Both the position numbers and the translations under genes were made by a program. Positions 3,494-29,375 of a stretch of DNA of 30,661 nt are shown here, piece after piece. Each line of letters starts with the position of its first letter. Position 1 is the stretch's first letter. The notes below the pieces were generated by a model that saw only the letters and a program-made list of their open reading frames with translations, ran no database searches and was not told the origin of the DNA. Origin of the DNA: a virus (lineage: Duplodnaviria > Caudoviricetes); IMG/VR virus record IMGVR_UViG_3300032295_003276, positions 1-30,661 of that record; one strand, written 5' to 3'.

Positions 3494-6400
3494 ATGGCAG
3501 AACAAATCGGCATTCGGCTCAACCTGCAGGGCGCCGCCCAGGTAACGGGCGGCCTGGCGGGCGTCGTCCGAAGCCTGGGTGATCTGGACAGCAAGACATT
3601 GAAGGTGGGCGACGCCTTCAAGGCCCTGGGCCCGCAGCTGGCCGCCGCGCTGTCGGTGGGCACCATCGCCGCGTGGCTGAAGTCGGCTGTCGACGCCGTC
3701 GACGCCATGAACGACCTGGCCGACGCCACCGGCTCCACGGTCGAAGAGATCAGCAAGCTCGACCGCTTCGCCCGCACCACCGGCACCACGCTCGATGCCG
3801 TGGGCGGCATCATGGTGAAGTTCAACGCGGTCTTGAAAGACGCCGACGGCACCAACGCCGTCAGCCAGGCGCTGCAAGCCATCAACGTCGACGTGGCCGC
3901 CCTGCGCCGCGCCGACCCCGTCGACGCCCTGCAGCAGACCGCCCGCGCCCTGGCCGGCTTTGCCGACGACGCCAACAAGGCGCGCGTCGTGCAAGAGCTC
4001 TTCGGCAAGTCCGTCCGCGAGGCCGCGCCCATCCTCAAGGATCTGGCCGACGCGGGCACGCTGCAGGCCAGCGTCACCGCCAAGCAGGCCGCCGAGGCCG
4101 AGAAGTTCAACCGCGCGCTGGCCGCCTTCAAGAAAGAAGTCAGCGATGTCGCCCGCCTCATCACGCAGACCCTGCTGCCCACGCTGAACAACTGGTTCGG
4201 CCAGCTCAGCGATGGCCTGGCCACCTACGGCAGCTTCACCCGCGCGCTGGGTGACATCGCCTTCAACATCAAGCCCTGGCAAACGCTCAACGAGAACTTG
4301 GCCGAGACCGTCAAGGACATCACGCTCTACCGCAACGTCATCAACGAGCTGAAGAGCAGCCGCCTGCCCGACCCCTTCGGCGCCCGCGCGCGCCAGATCA
4401 CCGAGTATCAAAGCAAGCTCGACAACGCCATCGCGCGCGAGCAGTACCTGCTGCGCCAGCAAGGCCGCGAAGGGGGCAGGGCGGCCGACCCCCGCGCGCG
4501 GCCGACCGAGCGCCCCAGCATCGCCCTACCATCCCCCGGCGCGGCCGGGGCAGCCGCCGCCGCCAACGCCGAGCGCGACATCCGCGCCCGCCAAGACCTG
4601 GCGCGCCTGGGGCGCGAAGACGCCGCCCAGGCCGCCGCTGACGAAGCCGCCCGCCGCGCCGCGCAGCTGCAGCTCGAAGCCGACGAGAAGGACAGCCTCA
4701 ACCGCCTGCTGCGCTACGACCGCGCCGTGGCCGATGCCGAAGCCGCGCACCAGACCGAGCTGGAGCGCATCGCGCAGGACGCCCTGCGCCAGCAGGCCCG
4801 CTACGACGACGCCACGCTGGCCGCTGAGCAAGCCAGCGCCGAGGCCGTGCAGCGCGAGCTGGAGCTACAGGCCGACCGCGCCCTGGCCCAGCAGGTGCGC
4901 GAATACGATGCCGAGCGCGCCGCCGACGCCGCCATCAAGGCCGAGCGCGAAGTGCGCGCCGCCCAAGACCTGGCCGCCATCGCCCGCTACGACGCTGCCG
5001 AGCTGGCAGCCGAAGCCGCCCACCAGCGCGAGCTGCAGCTGCAGGCTGACATCGCCCTGGCCGCCCTGGTGCGCGAGTACGAGGCCGAAGAAGAAGCGAC
5101 CCGCGAGTACCTGCGCCAGCGCGAAGCCTACCGCGACTACCTGCTGACCCTGCAAGACCAGATCACCCAGGCCCAGATCCAGGACGCCGCCGCCGTCCAG
5201 AAGTACCTCGACGACCAGACCGAAGCCGCCCGCCGCAACCTCGAGTCCATCCAGGCCCGCACCGCAGACCTCGAGCTCGACGCCAAGGCCAGCGCCCTGG
5301 CCGCCGCCCAGGCCATCAGCCTGGCCGAAGCCATCGAGCTGGTCACCATCGCCCGCCTGCGCGAGCAGCAGGCCATGTACCGCGCGGGCACCGAGGGCTA
5401 CGACGCCATCGAGCGCGAGATCCAGGCGCGCGAAAAACTGCTCGGCGCCCTGGGCGACCAGCGCGTGCGCCAGGCCAACGACCAGGCGGCCAAGGACGCG
5501 GCCGCGCAGTGGGAACGCACCGTCGACCAGGTCGGCCAATCGCTGGCCGACGCGCTGATGAATGGCGGCAAGTCGGCCGGCGACGCACTCAAGCGCTACT
5601 TCAAGACACTGATCCTGCAGCCCATCATCCGGGCCGTGGTGGACCCCGTGGCCCGCGTGTTCATGGGCATGATGGGCTTCGGCGGCGCTGCAGGCACTGC
5701 GGCAGCCGGCAGCGCGGCAGCCGGCGCGGGCGCGGCCGGTGCGGCAGGCGGTATGGGCAGCGCTTCGGGCCTTGCCGGCCTGCTTGCTTCCGGCAGCAGC
5801 ATCTTCAGCGCTGGCGCGTCCGCAGGTATGGCGGGCAACATCATGGGCGGGTTCAGCTCGGCCGGCTCCATGTTGTCTGCCGGCGCAACCACGCAGGGCC
5901 TGGCTATGGGCGCCGGCACGCTGGCAGGAATGGTGGCGCCGGCCATGATCGGCCAGATGATCGGCCGCGGAATCAGCGGCGGCTACTCGGCCATCGGCGG
6001 GCGCAGCGGCAGCAGCGCGGTCAATCTGGGCACGGGGATCGGCGCTCTGTTCGGGCCCATCGGCGCCGGCATTGGCGCGGCTGTCGGGGGCATCGTCAAC
6101 CGCGCTTTTGGCCGCAAGTTGGCCGACACCGGCGTCCAGGGCAGCTTCGGCGGGGCCTCGGGCTTCAGCGGGCAGCAGTTCACGTTCGAGAAGGGCGGCT
6201 GGTTCCGCAGCAATCGCACCACCACCGAAGCGCTGAGCAGCGACCTGCAATCCATCCTCGGCGGTGGCTTCACCCAACTGCGCGACGAAACCGTCAAGAT
6301 GGCCCGCGATCTGGGCTTGGCGTCGGAATCGGTGGCCGCCTTCACCAAGGACATCAAGCTGAGCCTCAAGGGCCTGACGCAAGGGCAAATCCAGCAGAAG

Positions 6401-8521
6401 CTGTCGCAAGAACTGGGCCTCGTCGCCGACGAGATGGCCCGCCTGGCCGGCGGCGCCGGCACCACCGCCGACAGCCTGCGCCAGCTCTACCAGCAGGTCA
6501 TGTCAGAGCGCGCCCAGCTCGAGACGCAGCTGCTGCAGCTGCAGGGCGACACCGCAGAGCTTCGCCGCCGCGAGCGCGAAGCCATCCACGAATCCAACCG
6601 CGCCCTGTACGACCGCATCAATGCGCTGCGCGACGAGCAGGCCGCGCTGGCCGCCGCCACCGCCGCCGCCACCAGCGCCGCCGCCGACGCCCTGGCCAGG
6701 CAGATCAGCGCCAGCCAGTCCGCCGCCAACGCTGCGCGCCAGGCTGCCGATGCCTACGCCCAGGCCGGCAGCAGCCTGCGCCAGACCATCGCCGCGCTGC
6801 TGGGCACCGGCAGCCCGGGCGCCAGCGCCGCCAGCGCCTACCGCACCGGCCTGGCCGCCGCGCAAGCTGGCGACGCCACCGCCATGGGCAACCTCGGCGC
6901 CCTGGCCAGCACCTACGCCGAAAGCCTGCGCGGCACCGCACGCACCCGGGCCGAAGCCAACATCGGCGCCGCCCGCATCGCGGCCGAGCTGCAGGGCGTG
7001 GCCGCCCTCAGCGACACCCTGGGCACCCAGCGCAGCGCCCAGGCCGCGCTGCTGGACATCAACACCGCCGCCCTGCAGGTGCTGCAGGAAGACCTGCAGA
7101 ACGGAAACCTCACCGTAGAAACGCTGCAGCAGCACACCACGCTGCTGCAAGCCATCAATGCTTCGCTCGGCTCCAGCGGCGCCATCGCCAGCGCGATGCA
7201 GGCGCTCGACGCCAACGTCGACGGCCTGCTCACCTTCGAAGAGCTGCAGCGCGGCCTGGCGGGCAAGGCCAGCGACGACCAGATCCGGGCGCTGATCGCG
7301 CGCGTGGATACCAATGGCGACAGGCAGGTCAGCGTGCAAGAGCTTGCGGCCGACCAGGTGCGCCAACGCCTGGAACTCGTCAACCGCAGCACCGTCGATG
7401 TCGCCCAGCGCATCCTGACGCTGACCGGCGAACTGATCGCCGGCTTTGATGGTCTGGACGCCAACGTCGACGGCCTGCTCACCTTCGAAGAGCTGCAGCG
7501 CGGCCTGGCGGGCAAGGCCAGCGACGACCAGATCCGGGCGCTGATCGCGCGCGCAGACAGCAACAGTGACGCCCAAGTCAGCCTGCAAGAGCTGACCGCA
7601 GAGCGCGTGCGCTCGGTCATCCTGGGTACCGGCGACATCGTTACCGCCGCAAACCGCACCACCGACACCACCGGCTCGGTCGCCGATGCTACCGGGGGCG
7701 TGATCGACGAGCAGAGCCGGGCCATCAGCTTCCTGGCCAGCAGCGATTCAACGCTCGCTCGCGTGCTGGCCAAGCTGAGCGAAAGCGACCCCACCAGCCT
7801 GCTGCTGGTGGACCGCGTCACCAGCGGCAACACGCTGGTGGCCGACCGGCTGTCGCAGGTCATCAGCGCGATCAACATGCAGACCGCCGCGCAGCAGGCC
7901 GAGGTGAAGCGCCAGCAAGACCTGCAGCGCGCGCAGGCCGATCTGCAGAGCGCCGCGGCCTATCTAGGCAGCCTGCAAGGCAACGTACAGACCGCGCAGG
8001 CTACGCTGGCCGGCACGCCGGCCACCACCAGCGTGCGCGTCGGCACGCGGTATGACTGGCTGGGCTTCGCCAAGGGCGGCATCTACGAGCAGCGCGCCAA
8101 CCCCGCCTTTGCCGCCGCACAGCAAGCCGAAGCCGAAGCCCAGGCGGCGCTGCGCGCCTACGAGCCCCAGGTCAACGCCCTGCGCGACCTGATCCGCTCC
8201 CTCGGCGGCGTCCCCCAGTTTGCGATGGGCGGCATGCACTCCGGCGGCCTGCGCATCGTCGGCGAGCGCGGCCCCGAGCTGGAAGTAACGGGCCCCGCGC
8301 GCTACTGGTCCGCCGCCGACACCACCGCCATGCTGGGCAACTCCCAGCGGCGCGAAGAGCTGCTCGCCGCTGAGATCCGCGCCCTGCGGGCCGAGGTGGC
8401 GGGCCTGCGCACCGAGGCGCGCGTCACGGCCGTGGCCGCCAACAAGACCCAGCGCCTGTGGGAACGCGTCACGCGCGACGGTGAGTCGATGCAGATCACC
8501 GACGTCACCCCCACGCCCTGA
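3494..8521 (+). CDS. Tail tape measure protein
   Basis: 1675 aa, Ala-rich helical, follows the G/T chaperones; Gly-rich hydrophobic centre; C-terminal FAMGG.H.GG.RIVGERGPEL motif. Confidence 0.92.
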   Translation: MAEQIGIRLNLQGAAQVTGGLAGVVRSLGDLDSKTLKVGDAFKALGPQLAAALSVGTIAAWLKSAVDAVDAMNDLADATGSTVEEISKLDRFARTTGTTLDAVGGIMVKFNAVLKDADGTNAVSQALQAINVDVAALRRADPVDALQQTARALAGFADDANKARVVQELFGKSVREAAPILKDLADAGTLQASVTAKQAAEAEKFNRALAAFKKEVSDVARLITQTLLPTLNNWFGQLSDGLATYGSFTRALGDIAFNIKPWQTLNENLAETVKDITLYRNVINELKSSRLPDPFGARARQITEYQSKLDNAIAREQYLLRQQGREGGRAADPRARPTERPSIALPSPGAAGAAAAANAERDIRARQDLARLGREDAAQAAADEAARRAAQLQLEADEKDSLNRLLRYDRAVADAEAAHQTELERIAQDALRQQARYDDATLAAEQASAEAVQRELELQADRALAQQVREYDAERAADAAIKAEREVRAAQDLAAIARYDAAELAAEAAHQRELQLQADIALAALVREYEAEEEATREYLRQREAYRDYLLTLQDQITQAQIQDAAAVQKYLDDQTEAARRNLESIQARTADLELDAKASALAAAQAISLAEAIELVTIARLREQQAMYRAGTEGYDAIEREIQAREKLLGALGDQRVRQANDQAAKDAAAQWERTVDQVGQSLADALMNGGKSAGDALKRYFKTLILQPIIRAVVDPVARVFMGMMGFGGAAGTAAAGSAAAGAGAAGAAGGMGSASGLAGLLASGSSIFSAGASAGMAGNIMGGFSSAGSMLSAGATTQGLAMGAGTLAGMVAPAMIGQMIGRGISGGYSAIGGRSGSSAVNLGTGIGALFGPIGAGIGAAVGGIVNRAFGRKLADTGVQGSFGGASGFSGQQFTFEKGGWFRSNRTTTEALSSDLQSILGGGFTQLRDETVKMARDLGLASESVAAFTKDIKLSLKGLTQGQIQQKLSQELGLVADEMARLAGGAGTTADSLRQLYQQVMSERAQLETQLLQLQGDTAELRRREREAIHESNRALYDRINALRDEQAALAAATAAATSAAADALARQISASQSAANAARQAADAYAQAGSSLRQTIAALLGTGSPGASAASAYRTGLAAAQAGDATAMGNLGALASTYAESLRGTARTRAEANIGAARIAAELQGVAALSDTLGTQRSAQAALLDINTAALQVLQEDLQNGNLTVETLQQHTTLLQAINASLGSSGAIASAMQALDANVDGLLTFEELQRGLAGKASDDQIRALIARVDTNGDRQVSVQELAADQVRQRLELVNRSTVDVAQRILTLTGELIAGFDGLDANVDGLLTFEELQRGLAGKASDDQIRALIARADSNSDAQVSLQELTAERVRSVILGTGDIVTAANRTTDTTGSVADATGGVIDEQSRAISFLASSDSTLARVLAKLSESDPTSLLLVDRVTSGNTLVADRLSQVISAINMQTAAQQAEVKRQQDLQRAQADLQSAAAYLGSLQGNVQTAQATLAGTPATTSVRVGTRYDWLGFAKGGIYEQRANPAFAAAQQAEAEAQAALRAYEPQVNALRDLIRSLGGVPQFAMGGMHSGGLRIVGERGPELEVTGPARYWSAADTTAMLGNSQRREELLAAEIRALRAEVAGLRTEARVTAVAANKTQRLWERVTRDGESMQITDVTPTP
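7208..7553 (+). repeat. 97-bp perfect direct repeat (7208-7304 and 7457-7553) within the tape measure gene, encoding EF-hand-like units
   Basis: Identical GACGCCAACGTCGACGGC...CTGATCGCGCGCG, 249 bp (83 codons) apart. Confidence 0.95.
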
Positions 8522-9463: not shown

Positions 9464-9934
9464 ATGCCCGCCAGCCCGCCCACCTACACCCCGCTGCCCA
9501 CGCCGGTGCCGCAGCGCAGCGACCCGGCCAACTTTGCCGTCCGCGCCGACCTGCTTCTGACCGCGCTGCCCACCTTCGGGACGCAGCTCAACGCGCTGGC
9601 CGCCAACGTCTACGCCAACGCGCTCGAGGTGCTGGCCAACGCCAACGCCACGCAGGCCGACCGCGCCCTGGCGCAGGCCGCGCTGGCGTCCATCGTCGCC
9701 GCCAACCCGGCCGCCAACGCCGCCGCCGCCGCCGCATCGGCCGCCGCCGCCGCCGCCAGCGCCGCCCAGGCGCAGGCCGTCAGCCCCGACAGCCCGGTGC
9801 GGCTGAACACGCGCCGCATCTCGGCCGCGCTGACCATCCCCAGCGCCTACAACGCCGCGTCCGTGGGCCCCATCGCCATCGACGACGGGATCACCGTCAC
9901 CGTCCAAGACTTTGCCACCTGGAGCATCCAATGA
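9464..9934 (+). CDS. Tail fibre proximal/adaptor protein
   Basis: 156 aa with P.RSDPANF..RAD N-terminus, poly-Ala coil, and C-terminal TIP..YNAASVGPI.I..GITVTV...ATWSI module; ATGA overlap with the next gene. Confidence 0.6.
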   Translation: MPASPPTYTPLPTPVPQRSDPANFAVRADLLLTALPTFGTQLNALAANVYANALEVLANANATQADRALAQAALASIVAANPAANAAAAAASAAAAAASAAQAQAVSPDSPVRLNTRRISAALTIPSAYNAASVGPIAIDDGITVTVQDFATWSIQ

Positions 9935-11271
9935 GCACCCTCACCATCCGCAACATCCAGACGCCCGACGGGTCGCCCGTCGCCTTCCCCTTCGGCATCC
10001 GCATCGGCCAGGGCGCGGCCGGCAGCATCAACCACATCGGCGTGCCGGGGCAGCAGGGCTTCGGCGTGGGCATCGCGCCCGAGATCCCGAGCGGTTTTGC
10101 GCGTTTGCCCGGCACCGAAGACCCGGCTTCCGAAAACTACGGGAATTACCTGTACAGCGACGGCTCGGTCATGGTCTACGTGCCGGCCTTCTTCTACAAG
10201 TACGGCACCGGCAGCAACGGCAACGCCGTCAACGTCGTCGACGTCAAGCCCTTCAGCCACTTCGCCAGCGTGGCCGACGCCAACGCCGCGGGCTACGCGC
10301 TGCACCGGGCCTTCTACAACGCTGGCTCGATCCGCCCGGGCTTTTTCGTGGACAAGTACCTGTGCAGCAACAACGCGGGCACCGCCAGCAGCCTGAAGAA
10401 CGGGGTCGTGCTCAGCAGCGCGCAGCGCGGCAGCGTCGTCAACACCGCCTTCGCGACGTTGACCGGCACGCCCGGCAACAACCTGGCCGGCGCCATCGCC
10501 GCAGCCAAGACGCGCGGCACCCGCTTCTTTTGCAACACCCGCTTCATCCGCGGCGCCCTGGCCCTGCTGGCCAACGCACACGGCTCAGCCGCCACCGGCA
10601 CCGCCTTCTGTGGCTGGTACAGCGCAGGCGCGACCAACTTCCCCAAGGGCTGCAACAACAACGCCCTGGGCGATGTCAATGACGCCGCAATCGCCTTCGT
10701 CGACGACGGCACCGCCACCAACGCCGGCCGCACCGGCAGCGCCAACCTGCCTGCGCGCGTGGCGCACAACGGGCAGGCGTGCGGCGTCATGGACTTGAAC
10801 GGAATCGTCTGGGAAACCGAGCTGGGCATCACCAGCGACGGCACCAACTTCTATTTGTTCAAGACCACCGCAGACGCCGCCGCCGTCACCGGCGGCACCA
10901 CGCTGGCCACCGACGCCTGGGGCGCCACCGGCCTGGCAGCGCTGTACGACAGCTTGGGCGCCACCTACGAGAGCCTGACCGACAGCGCCAGCAACAAGAC
11001 CTTCGGCGCCGCCGCGCAAGTGCTCAGCGCCGCCACCAGCGGCAACGCCTGGGCCTTTGCCAGCCTGGGTATCCCACTGGCAACCGGCGTGGGCGGCAGC
11101 AACCAGTTTGGCAACGACTATCTCTACGACGATCGCCCGAACGAGCTCTGTGCGATCTCTGGCGGCGACTGGAGCTACGGCAGCTTTGCCGGGGTCTGGG
11201 CGCTGGCTCTGAACATCGTCCGCGGTAACTCGCACACCTTCATCGGGTTCCGCGCCGCCTCTTACCTGTAA
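9931..11271 (+). CDS. DGR target: tail fibre/receptor-binding protein with a C-terminal CLec (FGE-like) domain, Mtd-analogous
   Basis: 446 aa with GFFVDKY, VMDLNGIVWE, GGDW and IGFRAA motifs; its 3' end is the variable repeat. Confidence 0.9.
   Translation: MSTLTIRNIQTPDGSPVAFPFGIRIGQGAAGSINHIGVPGQQGFGVGIAPEIPSGFARLPGTEDPASENYGNYLYSDGSVMVYVPAFFYKYGTGSNGNAVNVVDVKPFSHFASVADANAAGYALHRAFYNAGSIRPGFFVDKYLCSNNAGTASSLKNGVVLSSAQRGSVVNTAFATLTGTPGNNLAGAIAAAKTRGTRFFCNTRFIRGALALLANAHGSAATGTAFCGWYSAGATNFPKGCNNNALGDVNDAAIAFVDDGTATNAGRTGSANLPARVAHNGQACGVMDLNGIVWETELGITSDGTNFYLFKTTADAAAVTGGTTLATDAWGATGLAALYDSLGATYESLTDSASNKTFGAAAQVLSAATSGNAWAFASLGIPLATGVGGSNQFGNDYLYDDRPNELCAISGGDWSYGSFAGVWALALNIVRGNSHTFIGFRAASYL
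11145..11262 (+). repeat. DGR variable repeat (VR)
   Basis: 118 nt, ungapped with 11806-11923, 105/118 identical; all 13 mismatches lie opposite TR adenines. Confidence 0.97.
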
Positions 11272-11805: not shown

Positions 11806-11923
11806 GCTCTGTGCGATCTCTGGCGGCAACTGGAACAACGGCAGCAATGCCGGGGTCTGGGCGCTGAATCTGAACAACGTCCGCGGTAACTCGAACAACA
11901 ACATCGGGTTCCGCGCCGACTCT
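11806..11923 (+). ncRNA. DGR template repeat (TR)
   Basis: Adenine-rich counterpart of VR with 11 AAC/AAT codons and 26 adenines; located between avd and RT. Confidence 0.97.
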
Positions 11924-12093
11924 GAGCCTGGCTTGCCACATGCGGCATCGGCCGACCGGCAGAGAGGGAGCCCCCGTCGCGGCTGGTGCCGAAATGTTCT
12001 GTTGCCGCGCCCTGCAGTAGCCCCGGCCGCCCGTGTTGGCAGCCCGGCGACCCTTGGCGCAGCAACCCCTTTGCCCAGCAGGTTGCGCGCACG

Positions 12094-13161
12094 ATGAAAC
12101 GCCACGCAAACCTGTTTGACCAGTACGCGCACCCCGATGCGCTGCTGCAGGCCTACCGGCGCGCCCGCGAGGAAAAGCGCAACAGCCGCGGCTGTTTCCT
12201 GTTCGAGCGCAACCTGGGCGCCAACATCCACGGTCTGCACGCGCAGCTTCTGGACGCCACGTATGCGCCGCTGCCGGTCAATGCCTTCTGGATCAACGAT
12301 GGGCGCAAGCCCCGCCTGATCGAAGCGCCGTCATTCCGAGACCTCGTCGTGCAGCACGCCGTCTATGGTGTCGTCGGCCCACTGTTCGAGCGGCGCTACA
12401 TCGCCACCAGCTTTGCCTGCCGCACCGGGCTGGGCACGCACGCCGCCGCCGATTGGCTGCAGGCCGCCATGCGCCGCGCGCCGCGCAGCGCCTGGGCGCT
12501 GCACGTGGACGTGCGCAAGTTCTTCTACAGCGTCGACCGCGCCACGCTGGCCGCGCTGGTGCGCCGCGTCATCAAGTGCCCGGACACCCTGCGCCTGCTC
12601 GACCTGTTCGCCCAGCGCCCGGCGCCCACGGGCATCCCCATCGGCAACCTGATGTCGCAGACGTTCGCCAACCTGTACCTCAACAGCCTCGACCACTTCT
12701 GCAAGCGCACGCTGGGCGCGGCCGACTACGGGCGATACATGGATGACGCCGTGATGATCGCCCCGAGCCGCGCCGTCGGCCAAGACTGGCTGCACCGCAT
12801 CGGCGAGCACCTGGCGCTGCTCGGGCTGGAGATCAGCCACCACAGCCTGCAGCCCATTGCCCGCGGCGTCAACTGGGTCGGCTACCGCACCTGGGCGCGC
12901 GCCCGCTTCGTGCGCCCGCGCCTGGTCCACCAGATCCGCGCCGACGCCCGCGCGCACCGCCTGCAACCCCTGGTGTCGCGCCTTGGCCATGCGCGCCGCA
13001 CCGCGTCTTTCCGGCCCCTCATCCAGTACATCACGGAGCATCACCATGCCGTCGCTCATCGCCTACCGCAAAGTTTCCACGCCCATGCACACGTGGGAGC
13101 TTCGGCTGCCCGAGGCCAACGCCGCCCAGCGCCAGGGCCAGGAACTCGCCACGCTGCCTGA
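12094..13161 (+). CDS. brt: DGR reverse transcriptase
   Basis: 355 aa from MKRHANLF; KPRLI.AP.FRD.VVQHA, DVRKFF.S, GIPIGNLMSQ.FANLYL and RYMDD motifs. Confidence 0.95.
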   Translation: MKRHANLFDQYAHPDALLQAYRRAREEKRNSRGCFLFERNLGANIHGLHAQLLDATYAPLPVNAFWINDGRKPRLIEAPSFRDLVVQHAVYGVVGPLFERRYIATSFACRTGLGTHAAADWLQAAMRRAPRSAWALHVDVRKFFYSVDRATLAALVRRVIKCPDTLRLLDLFAQRPAPTGIPIGNLMSQTFANLYLNSLDHFCKRTLGAADYGRYMDDAVMIAPSRAVGQDWLHRIGEHLALLGLEISHHSLQPIARGVNWVGYRTWARARFVRPRLVHQIRADARAHRLQPLVSRLGHARRTASFRPLIQYITEHHHAVAHRLPQSFHAHAHVGASAARGQRRPAPGPGTRHAA

Positions 13162-23971: not shown

Positions 23972-24336
23972 CGCCCGGCCTCCACCTGGGCCAGCTGCAC
24001 GCGCAGCTCGCTGACGTAGCCGCGGTGCGCGGCGATCAGCAGCGGAATGTCCCGCGCTTCATCCTGCAGCCACCCGATGTCGCGCTCGGCGCCGGCGATC
24101 AGGTGGCGCAGGTAGGCGGCGCGCAGCGCAATCCGCAGGCGCAGCCACCAGGGCCGGGGCACGCCCAGCGCGGCCACCGCCGCCGCGTGCGGGCCGATCA
24201 GGCCCTCGAGCTCCACCCAGTGCACCAGCGCCACCGCGCCGATGACCGCCAAGATCAAGCAAAAGACGAACTCATACGCCGCGGCGGCGCGGCGCTCGGC
24301 CCGGGTGGGCGCGTGGGGGACGACAGGCACCGACAT
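23968..24336 (-). CDS. Membrane protein, first gene of the leftward (PL) operon
   Basis: TM segment FVFCLILAVIGAVALV; GGGAG RBS. Confidence 0.7.
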   Translation of the reverse strand: MSVPVVPHAPTRAERRAAAAYEFVFCLILAVIGAVALVHWVELEGLIGPHAAAVAALGVPRPWWLRLRIALRAAYLRHLIAGAERDIGWLQDEARDIPLLIAAHRGYVSELRVQLAQVEAGR

Positions 24337-24383
24337 CGCATCTCCCGCCCCCGGCGTAAGCCGTTGTCGTGGGGCTGGGTGCG

Positions 24384-24427
24384 ATTCTTAGCCTTGGGCT
24401 AACTCATGTCAATAGCCTTTGGCGAAT
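24384..24427 (-). promoter_or_regulatory. PL promoter with two operators
   Basis: Minus strand TTGACA-N16-TAAGAAT; perfect palindrome TTAGCC-N3-GGCTAA at 24388-24402; ATAGCC-N3-GGCGAA at 24412-24426. Confidence 0.85.
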
Positions 24428-24460
24428 GCCCTGGGATTTTTGTCGCTGAGTCTGCTCAAG

Positions 24461-24733
24461 CTACTGCGGTATCAGCGTGATGCCGCAGTGCTTGCACCGC
24501 TTGGCGTCGCGCAGCACCAGCTCGCGGCAATCGGGGCAACGCACGTGCGTGTCTGGGGTGGCACGTTGTGACTGCGGGTCATTGAGGCGCGGCAGTGCCA
24601 ACAGCAACAGGCCAGTGAGCAGCGGGCTGATGAACACCGTCAGCAGGAACCAACCAAAGCCAGAGCGCCCCCGATGGGAAGCGGCTACGCCGATGACCAC
24701 TGCCAGGCCAAGCCAGAGCACAGCAATTTCCAT
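24461..24733 (-). CDS. Two-TM membrane protein with a C-terminal zinc ribbon, downstream of the repressor
   Basis: Hydrophobic N-half with RGRSGFGWF; CPDC...CKHC. Confidence 0.8.
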   Translation of the reverse strand: MEIAVLWLGLAVVIGVAASHRGRSGFGWFLLTVFISPLLTGLLLLALPRLNDPQSQRATPDTHVRCPDCRELVLRDAKRCKHCGITLIPQ

Positions 24734-24787
24734 GGATTTCCCCTTGCGGCAACCATCGCCGCGGCCGCGATTGTGCGACCAGGCCGA

Positions 24788-25186
24788 TCAGGTGCCCGTG
24801 CGGACTACGGTGGCCGTCGGCGATTGAGCAAGCGCATCAAGGAGCCGCAGGGCCGTGGGCCATTGATCGGGCGCCATCTGCTCCATCAGCAGCAGGGCCT
24901 TGGTGCGCGGATCTTCCTCACCGTGCAGCTCTGCAAACGTGGGCGGGGTGTCCATCCAGCCGCGTGGCAGCTGCAGCGTCGCCTCGATCTCGCGCGCCAT
25001 CTCGTCGCCCATCTGGTAGGGCTTGTCGCGGCCAGAGCGCATGTTCTGGTTGCGGATCTGCAGCAGCTTCGGGTCTGTGCGTGGCCAGCCCAGCGCCTCG
25101 TTCAGCGCCGCAACGGTGCCGTAACGCTGGATCAGCATCTTCAGGCGGGCCAGCCGCGTTTCGTGAATGGTCAGCACAAGCAGCAT
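24788..25186 (-). CDS. CI-like repressor without a peptidase S24 domain
   Basis: R..RL..LI...MGD..AR.IE..L.LP.GWMD repressor N-domain pattern; divergent from cro; GGAGG RBS. Confidence 0.8.
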   Translation of the reverse strand: MLLVLTIHETRLARLKMLIQRYGTVAALNEALGWPRTDPKLLQIRNQNMRSGRDKPYQMGDEMAREIEATLQLPRGWMDTPPTFAELHGEEDPRTKALLLMEQMAPDQWPTALRLLDALAQSPTATVVRTGT

Positions 25187-25212
25187 TCCAAAGCCTCCGG
25201 CGATCTATGCAA

Positions 25213-25257
25213 ATTCGCGCCCGGCTATTGACAGCGCATAATCCAATGGCTAAGAAT
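25213..25257 (+). promoter_or_regulatory. PR promoter with two operators
   Basis: TTGACA (25228-33)-N17-TAAGAAT; operators TTCGCG-N3-GGCTAT (25214-28) and TAATCC-N3-GGCTAA (25239-53). Confidence 0.85.
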
Positions 25258-25266
25258 GCGCGACGT

Positions 25267-25554
25267 ATGAACCTCCTGGACTGGCTTTCACAGAAACGCG
25301 GGCGTCAAGCCGCCCTGGCCGGCGAGCTGGGCATCAGGCCGCCGACGGTCTCAGATTGGGCCGCGGGCGACAAGCGCGTGGCGCTGGACCGCTGCCCGGC
25401 CATCGAACGCGCCACCCAAGGCGCCGTCACCGTCGAGGTGCTGCGCCCCGATGCGGCCTGGAGCCGCATCCCTGATCCGAGCTGGCCGCACCCGGCCGGC
25501 CGGCCCGTGATTGACGTTGCCCGGCCGGTGGTGGCTGTGGCGCAAGAGGGGTGA
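25267..25554 (+). CDS. cro: Cro/YdaS-like HTH regulator
   Basis: GRQAALA..LGI.PPTVS.W..G...V...RC..IE.AT.G.VT...LRPD. Confidence 0.88.
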   Translation: MNLLDWLSQKRGRQAALAGELGIRPPTVSDWAAGDKRVALDRCPAIERATQGAVTVEVLRPDAAWSRIPDPSWPHPAGRPVIDVARPVVAVAQEG

Positions 25555-25558
25555 GCGC

Positions 25559-25858
25559 ATGACCAACACCGCGGACACTGCCGAGATCCTGACCGAGCTG
25601 CGCGCCATCCGCGCGCTGCTGGAGCGGCAGCTTGTGCTGTCGATGTACCTTACGTTCAAGCGCGAACCGCCTGAGTTTGCCGAGCAGCTCAACCAGGCGT
25701 GGATGGATTCGCAGCTGGCCGCTCCGGTGCTGCCTGGTGAGCGGCAAGCAGCTGCTGCAGCAGCAACTCGATGCGCGCAAGAGCCTGCATCGTGTCTTCG
25801 TGCATCTCCCACAGTTCCTGCATCGGCTGCGGAAACTGCGGGGGCGGCTGCGGAATGA
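25559..25858 (+). CDS. Hypothetical ORF, cassette 1, sense strand
   Basis: 99 aa from MTNTADTAE; GAGGGG RBS inside repeat A1. Confidence 0.5.
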   Translation: MTNTADTAEILTELRAIRALLERQLVLSMYLTFKREPPEFAEQLNQAWMDSQLAAPVLPGERQAAAAAATRCAQEPASCLRASPTVPASAAETAGAAAE

Positions 25859-25874
25859 ATCGACTGCTGTCCAT
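25689..25874 (-). CDS. Hypothetical protein, cassette 1, antisense strand
   Basis: 61 aa MDSSRFIPQPPPQF...; AGGAGG RBS in B1. Confidence 0.6.
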   Translation of the reverse strand: MDSSRFIPQPPPQFPQPMQELWEMHEDTMQALARIELLLQQLLAAHQAAPERPAANPSTPG

Positions 25875-26038
25875 GGGCGCCCTCCTGGCGGCACTGGTTG
25901 GGGTGAGAGCCGCCATTGTCAGCCGGGCAGGGCGCCCGCCCTTTGTGAACCGTAAGCCCGGCTGGCCGCACCCGGTCGGTCGGCCCGTCATCGACGTCGC
26001 CCGGCCTGTGGTGGCTGTGGCGCAGGAGGGGTGAGCGC

Positions 26039-26281
26039 ATGAGCCAGGAACGCGAAGCCGCGCTGGTGCAGGAGATTGCCAGCATCCGCGCGCAGCTTGG
26101 GCAGCTCAGGGCTGAGGCGGCAGCCTGGCGCGCAGCACCGCCAGCAGCTCGCCTGCAGATTCGCCGGCCGCGGCCGCTCGTGCGTCGGTCATTGACGCTG
26201 GCCGATCGCCCATCGCGTCGAGCAGTGCGTCGTGCAAAGCTTGCGGCGCTTCGTGCACTTGCAGCAGGGCCTTCAGCGTGA
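26039..26281 (+). CDS. Hypothetical ORF, cassette 2, sense strand
   Basis: 80 aa from MSQEREAAL; GGAGGGG RBS in A2. Confidence 0.5.
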   Translation: MSQEREAALVQEIASIRAQLGQLRAEAAAWRAAPPAARLQIRRPRPLVRRSLTLADRPSRRAVRRAKLAALRALAAGPSA

Positions 26282-26372
26282 CGCGGTGCGCGTGCAACTG
26301 CGCCTGCAGCTCGGCGCACTCGTCTTTCAGATCGCGGCACAGCGCGGTCAGGTCTGCGATCAACGCATGCAT
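26106..26372 (-). CDS. Hypothetical helical protein, cassette 2, antisense strand
   Basis: 88 aa MHALIADLTALCRDLKDEC...; AGGAGG RBS in B2. Confidence 0.65.
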   Translation of the reverse strand: MHALIADLTALCRDLKDECAELQAQLHAHRVTLKALLQVHEAPQALHDALLDAMGDRPASMTDARAAAAGESAGELLAVLRARLPPQP

Positions 26373-26671
26373 GGGCGCCCTCCTGGCGGCAACGGTTGGG
26401 GTGAGAGCCGCCATTGTCAGCCGGGCAGGGCGCCCGCCCTTCGTCGCGTCCGATCCCTCCCTGCGCGGTGCCCATCGCCGTGCGTTTGCGCCACGCTGGC
26501 CGGCCGTGATGCCGGCCGCCCGGCCGGTGCCGCTGCGTACCGTCTCCTCCGCATGCGGCCTGGCCGGGCGGCGCGTTTTTTCTTCCATGAGTTGAGGCCA
26601 CACGCGATGGTGCCTGCCCAGCTACAAACGTCTGGTGCGCAAACGCAACTTCGAGCACAAGGGGGTTTCTG

Positions 26672-26932
26672 ATGGCAGGCCGTACCGTCACCCCCGGCTT
26701 GGTGCGCCACCGTGCCTTCGAAGCACGAGTGGGCGCGCAGTACCTCACCCGCACAGGCCGCCTTGCACGCCTGGCCAAGATCGAGCCGGATGCCAGCGGC
26801 GACGACATCCTGCACTTCGAGTACATCGACCCGCCGCCCGATGCCGGCGCGCTGGGGCCGACGAAGACCCGCAAGGATGGCTTCCAGATGCACGAGCGCG
26901 TGGCATCGCGCCTGATGGTTCGCGTTGACTGA
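26672..26932 (+). CDS. Hypothetical protein upstream of the primase
   Basis: 86 aa; AAGGGGG RBS; codon usage typical of the phage. Confidence 0.65.
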   Translation: MAGRTVTPGLVRHRAFEARVGAQYLTRTGRLARLAKIEPDASGDDILHFEYIDPPPDAGALGPTKTRKDGFQMHERVASRLMVRVD

Positions 26933-29375
26933 CGCAGGCCGCGCCATGACACAGGAAGCCGCCTTGATGCAGCCGCTGCTGGACAACCTGCCCGCCGCCA
27001 TGCGGGCGCTGGACCAGTGGCTGGTCTGGCGCTTCGAGACTTACCCCGGCGACAAGAAGCCGCGAAAGGTGCCCTACTACTGCAGCGGGCGCAAGCGCCG
27101 CGGTGAGCAGGGCAGCGCCGAAGACCGCGCCCAGCTGGCCGGCTTTGCCCAAGCGCGGGCGCTGGTGGACACCGGGCGCTTCGATGGGCTGGGGTTCGCC
27201 TTCCTGCCCGGTGACGGGCTCATCGGCATCGACATCGACGCCGCCATCGACGCCGACACCGGCGAGGTGGCGCCGCACTGCCTGCGCATCATCGAGCAGT
27301 GCGCCAGCTACACCGAGCGCAGCCCCAGCGGCCGGGGCGTGCACATCATCGTGGCCGGGCACACGCAGACCTTCAAGGACAACAGCATCGGTGTCGAGGT
27401 GTTCTGCGGCCGCCAGTTCTTCACCTGCACCGGCGACCGCTGGGCCGGCACGCCGGCCGAGGTGGGCCCGATCACGCCGCAGACGCTGGCGATGTTGCGC
27501 GAGCTGGTCAAGCCAGCGCGCGACCAGGCGCCGCGCGCCGCTGCACCACGCCCCGCCACGCCCGCCGCCGATGACCTGGGCCGGCGCCTGGAATCCGCAC
27601 TGCTGCAGCTGGACAGCGACATGCCGCACGACGACTGGGTCGAGGTGGGCATGGCGTTGAAGGCCGCGCTGGGCGAAGGCGGCCTGCGGCTGTGGGACTG
27701 GTGGAGCAGCAAGGGCAGCAAGTACCCGGGCCATGAGGTGCTGGCCCGCAAGTGGGCCAGCTTCCGCGGCCAGGGCATCACCGAGGCCACCATCTTCCGC
27801 CGCGCCATCGACGCCGGCTGGTCACCGCCGCGCAGCCGCAGCCCGCTGCGTGCACCGCCGCCGCCGCAGGACGCGCCCGATCTGCAGGACGACGGTGCGG
27901 CCGGCGACGACCAGGCCGAAGACGCGCCCGAGTACCACGCCGACCCCGAGGGCGCCGAAGCGGCCGAAGCCCGATCTACCCCTGCGCCCGGCTCCGCGCC
28001 GGGTGGCAGGCGCAAGCCCCGCAACAACCTGCCCCCGGCGCTGGACGCGCTGCTGCTGCGCAACAGCGAAGGCGGTGTGGCCGACTGCCGTGAAAACGTC
28101 TTCCTGACGCTGAAGCACCATCCCGAGCTGGCGGGCCTGGTGGCCTTCGACGAGTTTGCCTACCGCGTGCTGAAAACCCGCACCACGCCCTGGGGCAGCG
28201 AGCCGGGCGAGTGGGCCACCGACGACGACTACAGCCTGGGCTACTGGCTGGCCACGCAGTTACGCCTTCGGGTGCGCGCTGAGGCCACGCTGGCGGCCGG
28301 CGTGGCCATGGCTGCCACGGACAACAAGTTCCACCCGGTGCGCCAGTACCTGGACAACCTGCCCGCCTGGGACGGCATCGACCGCCTGACGCACTGGCTG
28401 CACGAGTGCGTGGGCGCGGCCGACACCACCTACACGCGCCTGATCGGCCCGTGGTTCGTGATGAACATGGTGCGCCGCATCCGCCAGCCGGGCTGCCAGG
28501 CCGACTACATGATCGTGCTCGAGGGCAAGCAGGGCAAGCAAAAGAGCACCAGCCTGCGCACCCTGGTGGGCCGCAACGACTGGTTTGCCGACACGCCCAT
28601 CCGCATCGGCGACAAGGACGCGCTGCTCAATCTGGCGGGGAAGTGGCTGTACGAGATCGCCGAGCTCGACAGCTTCAGCCGCGCCGAGACCACCGCCGTC
28701 AAGCAGTACCTCACCAGCCGCATCGACCGCGTGCGCGAGCCCTTTGCGCGCCGCCCGGCTGACCGCCCGCGCAGCTGCGTCTTCGCCGGCACCACCAACC
28801 AGGACGAGTACAGCAAAGACAGCACCGGTGCGCGCCGCTTCTGGCCCGTGGCCTGCGACGACGAGATCAACCTCGACAAGCTGGCCGCCGACCGCGACCA
28901 GATGTTTGCCGAGGCCATCGCCCGCCTGGCCAGCGACGACGCCGAAACCCGGCGCTGCTGGCCCACGCGCGAGGAAGAACAGCGCTACCTCGTCCCCGAG
29001 CAGGAGCGCCGCGAGATCGGCGATCCGTGGTTCGAGCGCATCGCATCGTGGGTGGACAGCAGCGCCCGCTTCGGTGAGGCCCACACCGAAGCCTGTGAGC
29101 GCGACAGCTTCACCACGCACGAGCTGCTGGTGTACTGCCTGGGCGTGCCCAGCGACCGCATCGACGGTGCCCGCCAGATGAGCACGCGCGTGGGCATCGC
29201 CATGCACAAGCTCGGCTGGACGAAGAAGCGCGACGCCCATGGCGCCAGGCTCTGGCGCTACGTCCGTCCAACCTCGAAGCCGGGGCAGGGCGCGGACGAT
29301 CAGAACGCGGTGGGTGGTCCCACCAGCGAGCCGCAGGCCGGTGGTCCGGCCGAGGAAACGCTCGATGAATTCTGA
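26925..29375 (+). CDS. Primase-helicase: AEP primase + PriCT-2 + VirE/VapE-type P-loop ATPase (start may be 26946)
   Basis: QWLVW/KVPY/GIDID/E.SPSG.GVH; DDWVEVGMALK...WS..G.KY; LEGKQGKQKST, EIAELDSF, CVFAGTTN and TGARRFWPV motifs. Confidence 0.9.
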   Translation: MTDAGRAMTQEAALMQPLLDNLPAAMRALDQWLVWRFETYPGDKKPRKVPYYCSGRKRRGEQGSAEDRAQLAGFAQARALVDTGRFDGLGFAFLPGDGLIGIDIDAAIDADTGEVAPHCLRIIEQCASYTERSPSGRGVHIIVAGHTQTFKDNSIGVEVFCGRQFFTCTGDRWAGTPAEVGPITPQTLAMLRELVKPARDQAPRAAAPRPATPAADDLGRRLESALLQLDSDMPHDDWVEVGMALKAALGEGGLRLWDWWSSKGSKYPGHEVLARKWASFRGQGITEATIFRRAIDAGWSPPRSRSPLRAPPPPQDAPDLQDDGAAGDDQAEDAPEYHADPEGAEAAEARSTPAPGSAPGGRRKPRNNLPPALDALLLRNSEGGVADCRENVFLTLKHHPELAGLVAFDEFAYRVLKTRTTPWGSEPGEWATDDDYSLGYWLATQLRLRVRAEATLAAGVAMAATDNKFHPVRQYLDNLPAWDGIDRLTHWLHECVGAADTTYTRLIGPWFVMNMVRRIRQPGCQADYMIVLEGKQGKQKSTSLRTLVGRNDWFADTPIRIGDKDALLNLAGKWLYEIAELDSFSRAETTAVKQYLTSRIDRVREPFARRPADRPRSCVFAGTTNQDEYSKDSTGARRFWPVACDDEINLDKLAADRDQMFAEAIARLASDDAETRRCWPTREEEQRYLVPEQERREIGDPWFERIASWVDSSARFGEAHTEACERDSFTTHELLVYCLGVPSDRIDGARQMSTRVGIAMHKLGWTKKRDAHGARLWRYVRPTSKPGQGADDQNAVGGPTSEPQAGGPAEETLDEF

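Follow-up and report, generated by a model that had tools for sequence, protein, structure and literature searches.

Exchangeable antisense gene cassettes behind cro in a freshwater temperate phage, with a selected reading-frame relay on the sense strand

A freshwater temperate phage carries tandem, interchangeable accessory cassettes in a polymorphic slot behind cro. Each cassette holds a small gene on the strand opposite to the early lytic operon, headed by a conserved element (B). We regard it as probable that these antisense genes are on in the lysogen and off on induction, and that a selected relay of coupled sense-strand reading frames keeps ribosomes on the early lytic mRNA. The DNA analysed (the window) is the 30,661 nt IMG/VR record IMGVR_UViG_3300032295_003276 (positions 1 to 30,661; Duplodnaviria; Caudoviricetes).

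Results

The immunity region and the array

The window encodes an integrase (Pfam search), and the sequencing runs that contain this stretch are mostly freshwater metagenomes; genomes that bear B are labelled mostly as Rubrivivax, Roseateles, Aquabacterium, Piscinibacter or Methylibium. The features of the immunity region are listed in Table 1. A promoter scan found 2 sites (0.2 expected), including the PR-like site 5' of cro. On its downstream side the repressor gene is adjoined by a gene for a small membrane protein with a zinc ribbon [24461-24733 (-); phrog_9201, phrog_8436], a candidate lysogeny accessory gene.

Table 1. Features of the immunity region and the cassette array (positions in the window).
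Feature	Position	Strand	Evidence or remark
cI-like repressor gene	24788-25186	-	phrog_12107 transcriptional repressor, E=2.5e-11
PR-like sigma70 promoter consensus, predicted, 5' of cro	25228-25257	+	10/12 match
cro, YdaS family	25267-25554	+	Pfam PF15943, E=1.1e-16; last 74 nt form A1
A1: end of cro, containing an RBS, the cro stop and the start codon that follows	25481-25562	+	75/82 identical to A2
Sense ORF of cassette 1, 99 aa	25559-25858	+	no Pfam/PHROG/PADLOC match
Antisense cargo gene 1, 61 aa	25689-25874	-	6-member family in loci
Relay ORF through B1, ending inside duplicated cro tail	25855-26034	+	ATGA overlap at 25855
B1: sense-strand hairpin; minus strand with -10-like hexamer 25915-25920, SD 25881-25886, ATG 25872-25874	25872-25943	.	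fold, covariation, model
Tandem-junction linker, 17 nt	25944-25960	+	junction seen in 4 runs
A2: duplicated cro tail supplying RBS, stop and start	25961-26042	+	75/82 identical to A1
Sense ORF of cassette 2, 80 aa	26039-26281	+	no Pfam/PHROG/PADLOC match
Antisense cargo gene 2, 88 aa, predicted three-helix protein	26106-26372	-	database homologues, structure model
Relay ORF through B2 and over downstream structured element	26278-26595	+	GTGA overlap at 26278; frame kept in relatives
B2, like B1; -10-like hexamer 26413-26418, SD 26379-26384	26370-26441	.	fold, model
Three-way-junction RNA, then U-tract; putatively terminator-like	26488-26584	+	z=-5.1; 17 IMG/VR loci
21-codon ORF joining relay to next gene	26607-26672	+	coupling
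Early gene, conserved	26672-26932	+	similar ORFs at matching place in relatives
Primase-helicase	26946-29375	+	phrog_15962, E=4e-175; PriCT-2 and VapE domains

An earlier note on this DNA had described two cassettes after cro, set between repeats A and B, each with a convergently overlapping ORF pair; the layout, the repeats, the six ORFs and both overlaps are confirmed. B1 and B2 are identical at 70 of 72 positions, and the repeats recur at a spacing of 480 nt (A) and 498 nt (B). The description of A as an independent conserved flank does not hold, as A1 consists of the final 74 nt of cro and the start codon of the next ORF, and A2 is its copy. The two cargos had been called dissimilar; a single weak match of 27 nt links the heads of their sense ORFs (score 29, equalled in 1 of 200 shuffles), and they are otherwise unrelated. 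The sense-strand relay runs on past 26595 through the 21-codon ORF and the conserved early gene to the primase, whose start lies 13 nt past the stop of the early gene. At the place of window positions 26587-26670 close relatives hold an 89-aa gene (L004 3956-4225, L005 3817-4086) that is cII-like by position only; the 21-codon ORF replaces it in the window, with coupling retained.

Two further features lie elsewhere in the window. A diversity-generating retroelement (11145-11262, 11806-11923 and 11986-13161) has a 118-nt repeat pair at 89% identity, in which all 13 differences are at adenines of the second copy; the repeats adjoin a reverse transcriptase (Pfam RVT_1) and the first copy lies within the end of ORF 9931-11271. 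A 1675-aa ORF [3494-8521 (+)] matches EF-hand Pfam models above cut-off near residues 1231-1367.

A polymorphic slot

Pattern scans for B yielded 43 viral, 18 genome and 87 metagenome loci. The B profile gave 203 matches in 169 of 195 overlapping sequences, at 1-3 per locus, and these collapse to 136 distinct units; three pattern matches (L095, L097 and L116) were not recovered by the profile and are taken as chance. Related loci are non-independent, which the use of a single representative per family reduces and does not remove.

The slot behind cro is either empty or holds 1-3 cassettes of unrelated cargo. Among 17 viral loci anchored on the element downstream of B, 10 (several of them near-identical) lack B, 6 have one B and 1 has two. 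One locus (L167) has the arrangement of the window minus cassette 2, another (L004) has different cargo with the same flanks as the window, and a variant of cargo 1 is the sole cassette in L005 and L001. Counting that of the window, 22 distinct tandem junctions were found, some near-duplicates and one doubtful; in the others B is mostly followed, in place of A, by a short stub with an RBS and a stop at its end. These comparisons bear out the earlier proposal of an exchange hotspot, with a variable copy number and a fixed junction at B. Comparison of L001 (2850-3105) with L005 places the same cassette 1 after an unrelated cro allele in L001, the switch falling within the cro tail.

A search of the annotated phage collection with 25200-26950 gave no match. 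The cultured phage PP438427 (L195; its deposit names a Synechococcus phage) shows the same layout: cro is followed by two antisense genes, whose heads are unrelated to B in sequence and barely scored by the B model. This one example has a complete, unbroken ATGA chain from cro to a 337-aa gene.

The antisense cargo genes

Complete antisense ORFs headed by B are present in 124 of the 136 distinct units; all are 57-176 aa long and they form 66 BLAST families. ORFs in the same size range arise from 34% of control starts (n=310), and ORFs of at least 57 aa from 46%. The pooled pN/pS among close pairs is 0.45, indicating purifying selection (pairs are not independent, and parts below 40% identity were dropped). 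The narrow length range and the pN/pS support the view that the antisense genes are real.

Two of the 66 families pass the Pfam cut-off (BssS and DUF2513) and 64 have no Pfam match above it; six match PHROGs. PADLOC (2023) identified no defence family among 69 proteins at E<0.001, and when cargo proteins were searched against the annotated phage collection two had no match and one gave 3 records. BssS is matched or approached by several families [L154 1558-1803 (-), L131, L067; L196 1995-2246], and a homologue in Salmonella phage F1055 lies across the repressor, against the leftward genes there. By analogy, cargo function is most likely anti-phage or host-modulating.

Members of the cargo 1 family are 39-72% identical to the window copy where compared, and there are 3 database homologues. 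Cargo 2 has 6 database proteins at 80-97% identity and no relative in the viral contigs; its structure model has a pLDDT of 79 and a pTM of 0.43, and it is linked to 8 other cargo families in a loose helical group of nine. Foldseek comparison of the cargo folds with the PDB and BFVD returned nothing at E<=0.001. The Pfam score of cargo 2 for HopW1-1 is weak and below cut-off. Its likeness to the anti-adaptor IraP (Atlas 0.87; a hand-picked profile reaching 8GKV at E=0.0018) is a weak lead only: it was not recovered when the members were chosen algorithmically, a control profile matched a designed coil at E=0.0013, Foldseek gave no IraP fold likeness, and the IraP model PF10796 matched 0 of 17 aligned members at E<=10 and nothing in the window.

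The sense-strand relay

Measured against synonymous nulls, the unbroken relay of coupled sense ORFs suggested earlier proves to be under selection. By a strict rule (RBS plus coupling to an upstream stop) a first sense ORF (ORF1) is coupled in 84 of 112 units, and the hand-over to the frame that reads through B falls within -14 to +13 nt in 81 of these 84 units, representing 44 of 46 families; the five corresponding nulls have means of 13-22 families and a maximum of 31. With a rule free of the RBS the relay is found in 108 of 112 units, among them 26 of the 28 that the strict rule excludes, and in 60 of 62 families against null means of 30-33 and a maximum of 43. The B frame merges into the downstream frame in 16 of 18 units, and at the B-less sites that were read this downstream frame starts at the cro stop by overlap. 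Downstream coupling is seen in 89 of 104 cases, a bare count that is given no weight here. Of seven new matches to the RNA model, three pass the relay test, one fails, two have no ORF1 by the strict rule and one could not be oriented.

The length of B is 1 mod 3 in 109 of 125 cases. Stops within B number 0 in 124 units in the relay frame and 2, 7 and 11 in three other frames, with shuffle means of 32-48; the depletion is not specific to the relay frame and does not serve as a stand-alone argument.

What is selected is the relay, the sense ORFs themselves being mostly without protein-level constraint. This bears on the leading alternative, in which each cassette is a cognate defence/counter-defence pair whose overlapping sense ORF encodes a specific inhibitor made on induction. 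The geometry fits that of TerI/LMRG_02984 (overlapping opposite strands in an early lytic operon) and of Tab/atab (sense partner coupled upstream). However, pooled pN/pS of the sense ORFs (pairs not independent) is 0.80 in the head, outside the overlap, and 1.15 within it, against the 0.45 of the antisense genes. Of 56 pairs taken from within a family, 24 have unrelated heads, and in 5 pairs similar heads accompany cargo of different families. The length of the sense/antisense overlap (49.7 codons) is not above the null (39-53 codons). A cognate antitoxin role is disfavoured in general because the sense ORFs mostly lack protein-level constraint, and for cassettes at large we consider the paired reading unlikely. 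It gains ground for cassette 1, a possible exception to non-cognate sense ORFs judging by its alignment: all 5 of the 5 family members aligned share an unvarying N-terminal helix motif in the sense head, and identity is at a similar level in sense and antisense. Complex prediction for the cassette 1 sense/antisense pair gave a score of 0.03, which weighs neither way.

The structured RNA at 26488-26584 (+) is closed by a stem, occurs behind cro with or without cassettes and is always crossed by an open frame. It has no Rfam match and may be an attenuator or antiterminator.

The B element

B is the real module of the array. The head is 64-79 nt long among the units, and its two strands carry different signals. 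The antisense strand has an SD in 121 of 124 cases and, in 117 of 124, a -10-like hexamer whose distance to the ATG is 34, 37, 40 or 43 nt; no -35 consensus was found 17 nt upstream of the -10, and the promoter scan did not report B. B is the likely promoter of the antisense gene. The sense strand forms a long hairpin that is stabler than the antisense fold in 118 of 124 cases, with 339 G-U pairs in sense against 80 in antisense; for B1 the fold has z=-3.7 (sense) and -1.7 (antisense). Over 42 distinct rows of the alignment, both partners vary in 8 of the 19 base pairs and 97.7% of cells are paired, a level reached by 0 of 500 shuffles and far above slid controls; the search pattern partly imposed the outer stem, and the covarying pairs lie mostly outside the imposed part. 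B1 scores 76.9 bits against the RNA model, which had the window in its training set. Rfam returned nothing below E=1.7 for 24000-27200, with no match to B, and there is no U-tract consensus after B. Since the upstream arm precedes the predicted start site, the full hairpin would form only in the sense transcript or in a read-through antisense transcript. It could serve as a pause, a processing site or a shield against premature pairing.

The lambda PRE is an activator-dependent leftward promoter for the establishment of lysogeny, and B could be its counterpart, with cargo expressed only briefly after infection; B does lie between cro and the next regulator-like gene, points leftwards and lacks a -35 box. 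This reading is improbable, as the B-less loci among the 17 anchored ones are otherwise similar sites and B occurs in loci without the downstream 89-aa gene, for example in the window. B also follows genes other than cro: with 13 of 46 upstream ORFs left out as B-derived stubs or wrong frames, 21 of 33 are Cro/HTH, one is an antirepressor and 11 are without assignment.

We give still less credence to B as an attC-like single-strand recombination site at which a site-specific recombinase builds the array, although it is an imperfect inverted repeat with strand asymmetry and stands beside unrelated cargo in tandem arrays. B is not a dispersed repeat: with the pattern, each of 5 host genomes has a single match, and with the model 1-2 matches occur in 8 of 151. 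An attC core motif is expected at the ends of an integron repeat; by eye on the alignment, the conserved ends of B are instead the SD/start arm and its complement. The junctions downstream of B vary in sequence and length, and homologous exchange at B and the cro tail suffices for the observed forms.

Integrity of the assembly

The junction B1-linker-A2-cargo 2-B2 was recovered on contigs of 4 of 4 runs from four studies, with 0-4 differences; one of the runs is probably the source sample. None of the four has the whole array on a single contig, and in all of them contig depth, which is not a copy number, is lower over cassette 2 than over cassette 1. The earlier note had named an assembly chimera of two strains as a danger; it is unlikely because the tandem junction recurs in four studies. 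That the duplication is chimeric and the overlapping ORFs are shadow frames of GC-rich DNA (GC is about 70%, and long ORFs are frequent among control starts) is hardly credible, given strain-level differences between the junction contigs, 21 other tandem junctions (some near-duplicates), and relay and ORF-length statistics above their nulls.

Discussion

A model for the array

The exchangeable cassettes with their relay suggest the following course of events. With PR under CI repression, B would fire leftwards; after induction it would be overridden by transcription from PR, through collision or antisense pairing. Ribosomes would then pass from the cro stop to ORF1, by the stop-start overlap to the B frame, and from there into the pre-existing frame coupled to cro. 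This last frame would cross the terminator-like structure, where ribosomes may prevent polarity on the primase. Recombination at B and in the cro tail would exchange, add and remove cargo, and loop-out between B1 and B2 would yield the arrangement of L167 up to the downstream element. The cargo proteins would most likely oppose competing phages or tune the host.

Tentatively, the array may represent a general plug-in design of temperate phages. A portable promoter-hairpin head and a selected, non-protein-coding ribosome relay would admit almost any small gene, in backward orientation, to an early lytic operon, active in the lysogen and silent after induction, with no polarity. In that case the 66 families could be mined, by the head alone, as a largely unannotated library of anti-phage and host-modulating proteins. 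One element of 64-79 nt marks all 66 families and so gives a direct listing of candidate defence or host-control proteins that lysogens may express. For the question of how backward insertions are borne without polarity, the relay is a testable answer. Overlapping sense ORFs at such sites are not necessarily antitoxins or useful proteins.

Comparison with known systems

The earlier note knew of no named system with this layout; in general form it has precedent, in antisense genes that lie in lytic operons with a coupled sense partner (TerI, Tab). The array resembles named systems in how it works; neither the cognate partner of the TerI and Tab pairs, as a general feature, nor the strong promoter of the PeSL cassettes was seen in it.

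In the TERi system of Listeria phage 10403S (TerI, anti-TerI1/2), as in the array, a small opposite-strand gene in an early lytic operon overlaps a sense ORF; the TERi gene has its own promoter, and the accessible part of the preprint reports both protein-level rescue and antisense silencing (bioRxiv 10.1101/2025.02.27.640495). TERi is described there as one conserved system, whereas here one head serves 66 cargo families with sense ORFs that are mostly not cognate. Tab/anti-Tab of Pseudomonas phage JBD26 likewise places within a lytic operon a gene on the minus strand that has a promoter of its own, and its sense partner overlaps the upstream gene by 1 bp (PMC10884400). It differs in belonging to a late operon and in being a fixed pair with shown binding, and the accessible part of that account describes no shared hairpin head or relay (PMC10884400). 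A convergent opposite-strand pair in a lytic operon, as in TerI and Tab, is present in the 84 of 112 units that follow the strict rule; the sense gene is not a conserved cognate partner, with pN/pS of 0.80-1.15 and heads that are exchanged among families, the cassette 1 family being a possible exception.

Noncontiguous operons, including Tha/Ith of S. aureus phages, also nest an antisense gene in an operon; in the parts of these accounts that are accessible they are linked to reciprocal switching between lysogeny and lysis, and 80alpha has further such loci (orf11, orf17, orf72) (PMC11087260, PMC11034616). They are defined there from transcripts, while the array is known from sequence alone, and in Tha/Ith the antisense gene is an inhibitor inside the cI operon, whereas here the antisense gene is in the lytic operon (PMC11087260, PMC11034616). 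An opposite gene within a same-strand run is present in the array; of a promoter of its own, the fixed -10-like hexamer and SD are present and the -35 is absent.

The PeSL cassettes of T4-type phages resemble the array in their repeated promoter-plus-hairpin elements beside non-essential genes and in modular shuffling by recombination (PMC2839356), and a repeated hairpin beside variable ORFans is found here too. PeSLs, as far as the accessible text describes them, belong to lytic phages and have strong sigma70-like promoters and terminator stem-loops (PMC2839356), whereas B lacks a -35 and is missing from the promoter scan, so that no strong sigma70-like promoter is seen, its genes oppose the surrounding operon and its other strand is read through. 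In sieB/esc/sas of P22 an accessory exclusion gene is likewise under the control of an opposite-strand antisense RNA (PMC13397905, PMC12197685, PMC7067206). Searches of Rfam and of the annotated phage collection gave no similarity to B, and exchangeable cargo is not described in the accessible parts of those sources (PMC13397905, PMC12197685, PMC7067206).

A literature search that covered little of the subscription journals and bioRxiv supplements found no published description of a head combined with a relay. Earlier examples of antisense genes in lytic operons (TerI, Tab, noncontiguous operons) came singly, and in the array a common head is shared by many families.
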